A stretch of DNA of 64,000 nt, taken from sequence record MN850615.1; one strand, written 5' to 3'. This stretch comes from Escherichia phage kvi. The position numbers and the translations under genes were made by a program. The notes under the pieces are model-generated. The model did no database searches. It was not told where the DNA came from and saw nothing but the letters and a program-made list of their open reading frames with translations. Within the stretch, counting starts at the first letter, position 1. Each line of letters opens with the position of its first letter. This document shows, in pieces, positions 59,194-59,610 of the stretch.

Positions 59194-59610
59194 TTAGAGA
59201 GATTCGGTAAAGGTACGAGCGATAACATCACGCTGCTGGTCTGGAGTCAGACTATTGAAGCGCACTGCGTAACCAGAAACGCGAATTGTAAGCTGCGGGT
59301 ACTTCTCAGGATGTTCAACAGCGTCCAGAAGAAGATCGCGACTCATCACATTGATATTCGCGTGCTGACCACCTTCGACAACCGGAGCACCATTATCTAC
59401 AATGACAGGACGGAAGCTAGTTGTGTGCAGTGCCAGCGAATCGACGTCTTCGGCGGTGATCACATGGTCTTCTGCGAAAGTTTTACTAACAATTACTTTA
59501 GCGCCGATCAGTGCTTTCGGTTCGGATACCAGAATCATAGGCGCGAAGTGTCCACCAATAATAGTACCTTTATGCTCACCTTTCATGATTTGAATTGCTT
59601 TAAATTCCAT
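59194..59610 (-). CDS. grcA: autonomous glycyl radical cofactor (GrcA/YfiD-like spare part)
   Basis: C-terminal ..[52 protein letters not shown] closely recalls E. coli GrcA; AGAGGTGA SD. Confidence 0.85.

Follow-up and report, generated by a model that had tools for sequence, protein, structure and literature searches.

The gene vs.6 of Escherichia phage kvi, found in a window of 64,000 nucleotides (the whole stretch of DNA analysed, record MN850615.1), is predicted to encode an autonomous glycyl radical cofactor of the GrcA/YfiD type, which very likely serves, by analogy with its T4 and E. coli counterparts, as a spare part for the host pyruvate formate-lyase PflB, and probably also for the near-identical TdcE, with the host PflA as the activating enzyme. 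The assignment draws on homology, domain colinearity, the register of the radical motif, orthology and synteny with T4 vs.6, and purifying selection, all of which were observed in the present analysis. As a PFL repair gene of the T4 type, vs.6 is known already and is annotated in close relatives, and the broader point, that lytic phages bring with them a part for repairing a fermentation enzyme of the host, is in the literature for T4. The minor new details described here are a 36-nt mosaic patch and two Krischvirus N-terminal insertions. The finding matters little past the correct annotation of the gene, which many Krischvirus records label as "hypothetical protein", "pyruvate formate-lyase" or "acetyltransferase-related", while the proper name of its product is autonomous glycyl radical cofactor (Vs.6/GrcA).

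The listing of open reading frames contains the vs.6 frame exactly as predicted, including the C-terminal sequence quoted in the original prediction, and its product is a stand-alone protein of about 15 kDa (138 aa) devoid of the barrel of the glycyl-radical enzymes. The genes around vs.6 all lie on the minus strand. The intrinsic terminator located 3' of vs.6 (Table 1), likewise annotated in phage G2248, suggests that vs.6 is the last gene of the string endolysin-vs.8-orf41-vs.6. As for the promoters, the T4-type late promoter TATAAATA was not found within 5 kb of vs.6, and the sigma-70-like matches upstream of the gene were weak and not above the shuffled expectation. An antisense frame at 59122..59646 (plus strand, 174 aa), with no match to a PHROG or any other family, was rejected as a gene; when close relatives are compared, the base changes are silent if read in the minus-strand frame of vs.6.

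Table 1. Position of vs.6, its parts and its expression signals in the window
Feature	Position	Strand	Description and basis
vs.6 (grcA-like) coding sequence	59194..59610	minus	ATG-to-TAA open reading frame of 138 codons and a stop; autonomous glycyl radical cofactor by homology
C-terminal glycyl-radical domain, aa 77-138	59197..59382	minus	Pfam PF01228 on aa 78-119; HMMER alignments to 6owr and 1h16
Codon GGT of Gly113, predicted radical site in RVSGY	59272..59274	minus	Invariant alignment column; codon read from the sequence
N-terminal half, aa 1-76	59383..59610	minus	Alignment with T4 Y06I and GrcA
Shine-Dalgarno AAGAGGTG, 4 nt 5' of the vs.6 ATG	59615..59622	minus	Read directly from the sequence; strong
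Intrinsic terminator (10-bp stem, 5-nt loop, T-run)	59150..59184	minus	Starts 10 nt past the vs.6 stop codon; stem-loop at 59184..59160
36-nt mosaic patch, codons 83-94	59329..59364	minus	16/36 nt differ from RB49 and kaaroe

The family was assigned from several profile collections. The sole Pfam domain was the C-terminal part of Gly_radical, matched over the last 42 positions of the profile (65-106 of 106, E=2e-16), while the best NCBIfam match was TIGR04365, the autonomous glycyl radical cofactor GrcA (E=3.4e-37), and PHROG 1209 was matched over its full length (protein residues 3-138 against profile positions 1-121 of 121, E=1.4e-49). The best match among the solved structures was 6owr, the NMR structure of E. 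coli GrcA/YfiD (Vs.6 residues 37-138 against 29-127, E=1.5e-31), followed by the extreme C-terminus of PflB (PDB 1h16), in which Vs.6 residues 77-138 correspond to 698-759, up to the very last residue (E=2.8e-26). The radical domain is thus colinear with PflB 698-759 and GrcA 66-127. A MAFFT alignment was made of the window protein with four sequences from annotated records: RB49 Vs.6, T4 Vs.6, E. coli K-12 GrcA and the C-terminal part of PflB. In this alignment a block of 22 residues around the radical glycine was invariant in the five proteins, with Gly113 in register with GrcA G102 and PflB G734. The last 62 residues of Vs.6 are identical to those of E. coli GrcA at 52 positions, of T4 Vs.6 at 50 and of PflB at 47 (76%). 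The original prediction of a GrcA-like glycyl-radical protein, whose C-terminal 60 or so residues resemble GrcA/YfiD, is borne out by these matches, and in the alignment to GrcA and T4 Y06I that had been proposed as its check the glycine-radical motif aligned perfectly. Vs.6 can be classed by its sequence as an autonomous glycyl-radical protein of the GrcA/YfiD type, the resemblance being far beyond chance.

The TIGR04365 score of the window protein, 127.5 bits, is below the curated cutoff of the family, 170, and the same applies to the controls T4 Y06I (151.1) and T5.056 (121.5), while E. coli GrcA scored 234 bits. As the validated T4 Y06I also falls below 170, the cutoff delimits the bacterial GrcA and says nothing against a spare-part function in phages; the window protein belongs with the phage Vs.6/Y06I group, not with the bacterial GrcA equivalog. 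A single-sequence AlphaFold2 model of Vs.6 was too poor for use (mean pLDDT 45.8, pTM 0.35), and its hairpin at residues 108-117 and helix at 123-135, which match the known topology of the radical domain, carry no weight.

The window is derived from a Krischvirus, an RB49-like phage of the T4 type with about 97% nucleotide identity, and about 58 Krischvirus genomes, RB49, Phi1, GEC-3S and kaaroe among them, match the 3-kb stretch around vs.6 with 96-98% identity. The counterpart in RB49 is annotated as vs.6 (RB49p099), that in kaaroe as "autonomous glycyl radical cofactor", and T4 vs.6 (NP_049730) is annotated as GrcA in RefSeq NC_000866. The window protein shares 96% of its residues with RB49 Vs.6 and, taken overall, 55% with T4 Vs.6 (BLASTP E=2e-45, residues 4-138). 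The gene order in Krischvirus, endolysin - vs.8 - 41-aa ORF - vs.6 - nrdC.11 - three small ORFs - regB - vs.1 - vs - tk.4, runs parallel to that in Tequatrovirus, e ... vs.8 - vs.7 - vs.6 - vs.5/4/3 - regB - vs.1 - vs - tk.4, and the slot of vs.6 between vs.8 and regB, not far from the gene of the lysozyme or endolysin, matches the annotations of RB49, kaaroe, AR1 and T4. The neighbours in the window were identified by Pfam and PHROGs as RegB, the SLT-like Vs.1, an M15 peptidase endolysin, an RlaP-type nucleotidyltransferase and Vs.8 (phrog_1488). The window gene is accordingly recognized, from identity and gene order, as the syntenic ortholog of RB49 vs.6 and of T4 vs.6 (Y06I), so that the relation to T4 Y06I-type proteins, also claimed at the outset, stands.

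The same layout bears on the distance from the genes of the anaerobic ribonucleotide reductase. The gene nrdD was confirmed at 41197..43059 on the minus strand (Pfam NRDD, E=1.2e-175), with nrdG at 39285..39794. The remark that vs.6 lies about 16 kb from nrdD, apart from nrdDG, was correct as to the distance, but the placement is not unusual, since the gap in T4 is 17 kb (nrdD 43535-46385, vs.6 63557-63919) and the gene order is conserved; the separation is the ancestral layout of the enterobacterial T4-like phages and no peculiarity. The contrast with an nrdDG placement does have a basis elsewhere, namely in the large Aeromonas T4-like phages, in which vs.6 overlaps the end of nrdG. The sole local rearrangement concerns the nrdC.11 nucleotidyltransferase gene, which moved directly downstream of vs.6 in Krischvirus.

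Several other genes of the region may be mentioned. The nrdC.11-type nucleotidyltransferase (58409..59107, minus; Pfam RlaP, PHROG 388) has 232 aa against 336 aa in T4 and is a relocated, shortened version of the T4 protein, the gene of which adjoins mobD. The 41-aa frame between vs.8 and vs.6 (59621..59746, minus) is conserved (PHROG 13848, E=1.8e-30); it is annotated in RB49 and kaaroe and left unannotated in G2248. Upstream of the endolysin gene, at 60712..61713 (minus), there are five small, highly hydrophobic ORFs of 54-88 aa, apparently membrane proteins, which are labelled hypothetical in RB49. In their translations, several ORFs around nrdD and nrdG (37420..39283 and 43104..45801, minus) repeat an N-terminal motif W(E/K)xGKTY..., with '...ERKYFKRI/DRKFFREV', so that nrdDG may be flanked by small phage proteins of one paralogous family. 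Residues 592-596 of the window NrdD read RVSGY, the same pentapeptide as in PFL and GrcA, while T4 NrdD has RTCGY.

A tblastn search found homologs of vs.6, the gene being intact, in 1580 phage records of several families, among them T4-like phages that infect Escherichia, Klebsiella, Salmonella, Enterobacter and Aeromonas, as well as T5-like phages in which the N-terminus differs. Nolan et al. 2006 (PMC1524935) had earlier listed a match of vs.6 to Gly_radical in 6/6 T4-like genomes compared. In the comparison with E. coli grcA over the last 60 codons, pS was 0.68 (saturated) and pN 0.12, and beyond the mosaic patch every difference of the window vs.6 from that of RB49 is synonymous. With pN far below pS and the differences from RB49 outside the patch only synonymous, the gene is under strong purifying selection. 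Each of the 5426 E. coli genomes matched the 3' half of vs.6, the DNA identity in pflB, grcA and tdcE being 72-75%. The C-terminal 180 nt of T4 vs.6 (L004 22558..22920) are 97.8% identical to grcA of E. coli K-12 (L005 1067..1450; dS 0.07), against 74% for the window copy. Such closeness in T4 points to a recent host-phage exchange of this segment in the T4 lineage, unlike Krischvirus, whose vs.6 can be regarded, from these divergences, as an old, independently maintained lineage and no recent capture.

The mosaic patch is peculiar to the present allele and a few others. Every one of the codons 83-94 is changed relative to RB49 and kaaroe, with five amino-acid changes, while the rest of the gene is about 98% identical. 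The patch residues replace HLNINVLLREML of RB49 and kaaroe, and one of the changes, L84A, falls within the otherwise invariant GGQHLNVNV, which would count against the spare-part model. By megablast the patch allele was found in only five other phages of the collection searched, all Krischvirus (G2248, FL15, 011D4, Whisky and KFS-EC); no donor outside Krischvirus was found by the same search, T5, T4, grcA and pflB matching 21-27 of the 36 nt. In the register of the structure-match alignment the patch corresponds to PflB 704-715, within the residues 696-733 that are retained in the cleaved PFL (PMC8683613); it is plausible that the constraint at the patch is relaxed or shifting.

The N-terminal half of Vs.6 can be aligned to T4 Y06I from residue 4 and to GrcA from residue 37, with the motifs KA(I/Y)QI..G.HKGTI and IVSKTF.ED common to Vs.6 and T4 Y06I. 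It contains the two Krischvirus-specific insertions, at about residues 18-31 and 62-66, which are absent from T4 Y06I and GrcA. In YfiD, the N-terminal half (residues 1-60) matters for the binding of cleaved PFL and for activation (PMC8683613). By analogy, the N-terminal half of Vs.6 probably helps to bind cleaved PFL and aids the activation, although the insertions, which sit in the half important for both in YfiD, may count against the spare-part model.

The function proposed for Vs.6 follows the biochemistry of its counterparts. Wagner et al. (2001, BBRC 285:456; cited in PMC8683613) showed that T4 Y06I and E. coli YfiD are autonomous glycyl radical cofactors which, once activated by PFL-AE, reconstitute oxygen-fragmented PFL. 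Y06I and YfiD remain the only two validated spare-part proteins, being the only ones for which the installation of the glycyl radical by the PFL-activating enzyme, on the one hand, and the restoration of activity to O2-cleaved PFL, on the other, are recorded (PMC8683613). Modelled on these published data for T4 Y06I and E. coli YfiD, the repair by Vs.6 would proceed in four steps. During a microaerobic infection, O2 would attack the Gly734 radical of the active PFL and cut the chain, with the loss of the last 25 residues; Vs.6 would then dock on the cleaved PFL via its N-terminal half and the duplicated beta-strand, bringing the RVSG113Y loop into the active site; the host radical-SAM activase PflA would abstract a hydrogen atom from Gly113; and the hybrid enzyme would again turn pyruvate and CoA into acetyl-CoA and formate. 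The original suggestion that the protein could rescue either the host PFL or the phage NrdD is favoured in its first part, by the 47/62 identity to the PflB C-terminus and by analogy with the T4 ortholog Y06I, and finds no support in its second, NrdD sharing with Vs.6 only RVSGY (E>1).

For the phage, the benefit of such repair would be that fermentative ATP and acetyl-CoA keep flowing, together with formate as the reductant of the class III ribonucleotide reductase of the E. coli/T4 type. The T4-type NrdD also uses formate. The link between vs.6 and nrdDG could then be metabolic, through the supply of formate to the phage NrdD, rather than physical. For the E. coli class III reductase, formate is the hydrogen donor (Mulliez 1995). 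A wider, tentative reading, which we consider rather unlikely, makes Vs.6 a part of a phage module for anaerobic dNTP supply, fed by formate via the host PFL that it keeps alive in microaerobic surroundings, of which the translationally coupled Aeromonas arrangement nrdD-nrdG-vs.6 would be the ancestral or explicit form, and in which the Krischvirus insertions might adapt the binding or allow activation by NrdG instead of PflA.

Among the other explanations is a physical role for Vs.6 on NrdD. According to it, Vs.6 would swap in for the O2-cleaved C-terminal radical segment of the phage NrdD and be activated by NrdG, both of which the phage encodes; the window NrdD carries RVSGY at its radical site, and spare parts for other glycyl radical enzymes have been the subject of speculation (PMC8683613). 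Moreover, in the Aeromonas T4-like phages vs.6 is coupled to nrdG: in Aeromonas phage Ah1 (L009 3522..4384) it overlaps the nrdG stop codon by 4 nt within the string nrdD-nrdG-vs.6-nrdC-nrdH, and the overlap is also annotated in PX29, Aeh1, phiAS5, phiWae14 and AsFcp_4. However, BLASTP of Vs.6 against the window NrdD returned the pentapeptide RVSGY only, with E 1.4-1.9, and the radical segment of NrdD, which comes after the zinc ribbon and ends ...RRVSGYLGSVDLRPFNHGKHSEMVNRVKHM, is unrelated to the Vs.6 tail, whereas the Vs.6 domain shares three quarters of its residues with the PflB C-terminus. The Ah1 copy, although coupled to nrdG, itself has 73% identity with the C-terminus of PflB (E=1e-28), and similarity between Ah1 Vs.6 and its own NrdD was not found. 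Being PFL-like despite the nrdG coupling, the Ah1 copy indicates that the phage proteins examined mimic PFL, not NrdD, and the NrdD reading is held to be highly improbable. A common role under anaerobic conditions, in which PFL would make formate for NrdD, would account better for the recurring linkage to nrdG. The open question of spare parts for other glycyl radical enzymes is narrowed in that the phage copies examined are no examples of them.

The remaining alternatives accept the likeness to PFL and read it in other ways. As a decoy or radical sink, Vs.6 would compete for PflA with PFL, TdcE or GrcA, or bind intact PFL, thereby damping or redirecting fermentation; its radical loop is identical to the PFL loop, and therefore it must be a substrate of PflA, and the N-terminal insertions could alter the binding of partners. 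Nevertheless, in vitro the T4 ortholog gives PFL its activity back (PMC8683613), and a decoy needs the short loop only, yet strong purifying selection acts on all 62 residues of the domain, also where they pack into the barrel of PFL, which leaves this reading improbable. That the primary target is not PflB but the host 2-ketobutyrate formate-lyase TdcE likewise seems a poor prospect: tdcE does match at the DNA level (72.6%), and TdcE closely resembles PflB in the radical domain, but in every E. coli genome the best match, for DNA and protein alike, is to pflB, PflB is the abundant and constitutively made enzyme, and the two targets are not mutually exclusive. It is hardly conceivable that vs.6 is what is left, without function, of a pflB or grcA fragment once captured from a host, for which its resemblance to the 3' end of a host gene could be cited, since the frame is intact, with a ribosome-binding site and a terminator, is conserved across the 1580 phage genomes of several families, and evolves with pN far below pS and without nonsynonymous differences from RB49 outside the patch. 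The repair of host PFL thus remains the preferred reading.

In comparison with the known systems, Vs.6 of the window is closest to T4 Vs.6/Y06I, with which it shares the slot between vs.8 and regB, the PHROG and the N-terminal motifs, differing in length (138 aa against 120 aa in T4) by the two N-terminal insertions of about 12 and 5 residues, and in the genes that follow it, nrdC.11 in the window and vs.5, vs.4 and vs.3 in T4. With E. coli GrcA/YfiD it has in common the stand-alone form of about 14 kDa and the radical glycine in register, while its first 36 or so residues are not alignable to GrcA by HMMER, and vs.6, in contrast to E. coli grcA, is phage-encoded and belongs to an early-type phage transcription unit. 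The likeness to the PflB C-terminus (1h16, 698-759) extends over 47/62 residues, colinear to the last one, with 74% identity at the DNA level; unlike PflB, Vs.6 lacks the ten-stranded barrel of about 700 residues and the catalytic Cys418/Cys419, and therefore cannot be an enzyme alone. The same PFL-type radical domain is found in T5.056 and related Demerecviridae proteins and in the bacterial GrcA2/GrcA3 of about 80 aa, the domain of Vs.6 being identical to that of T5.056 at 46/62 positions and matching NF038360 and NF008341 of NCBIfam; in these proteins, however, the N-terminal parts are different or much shorter, and the T5 copy lies in the tRNA region.
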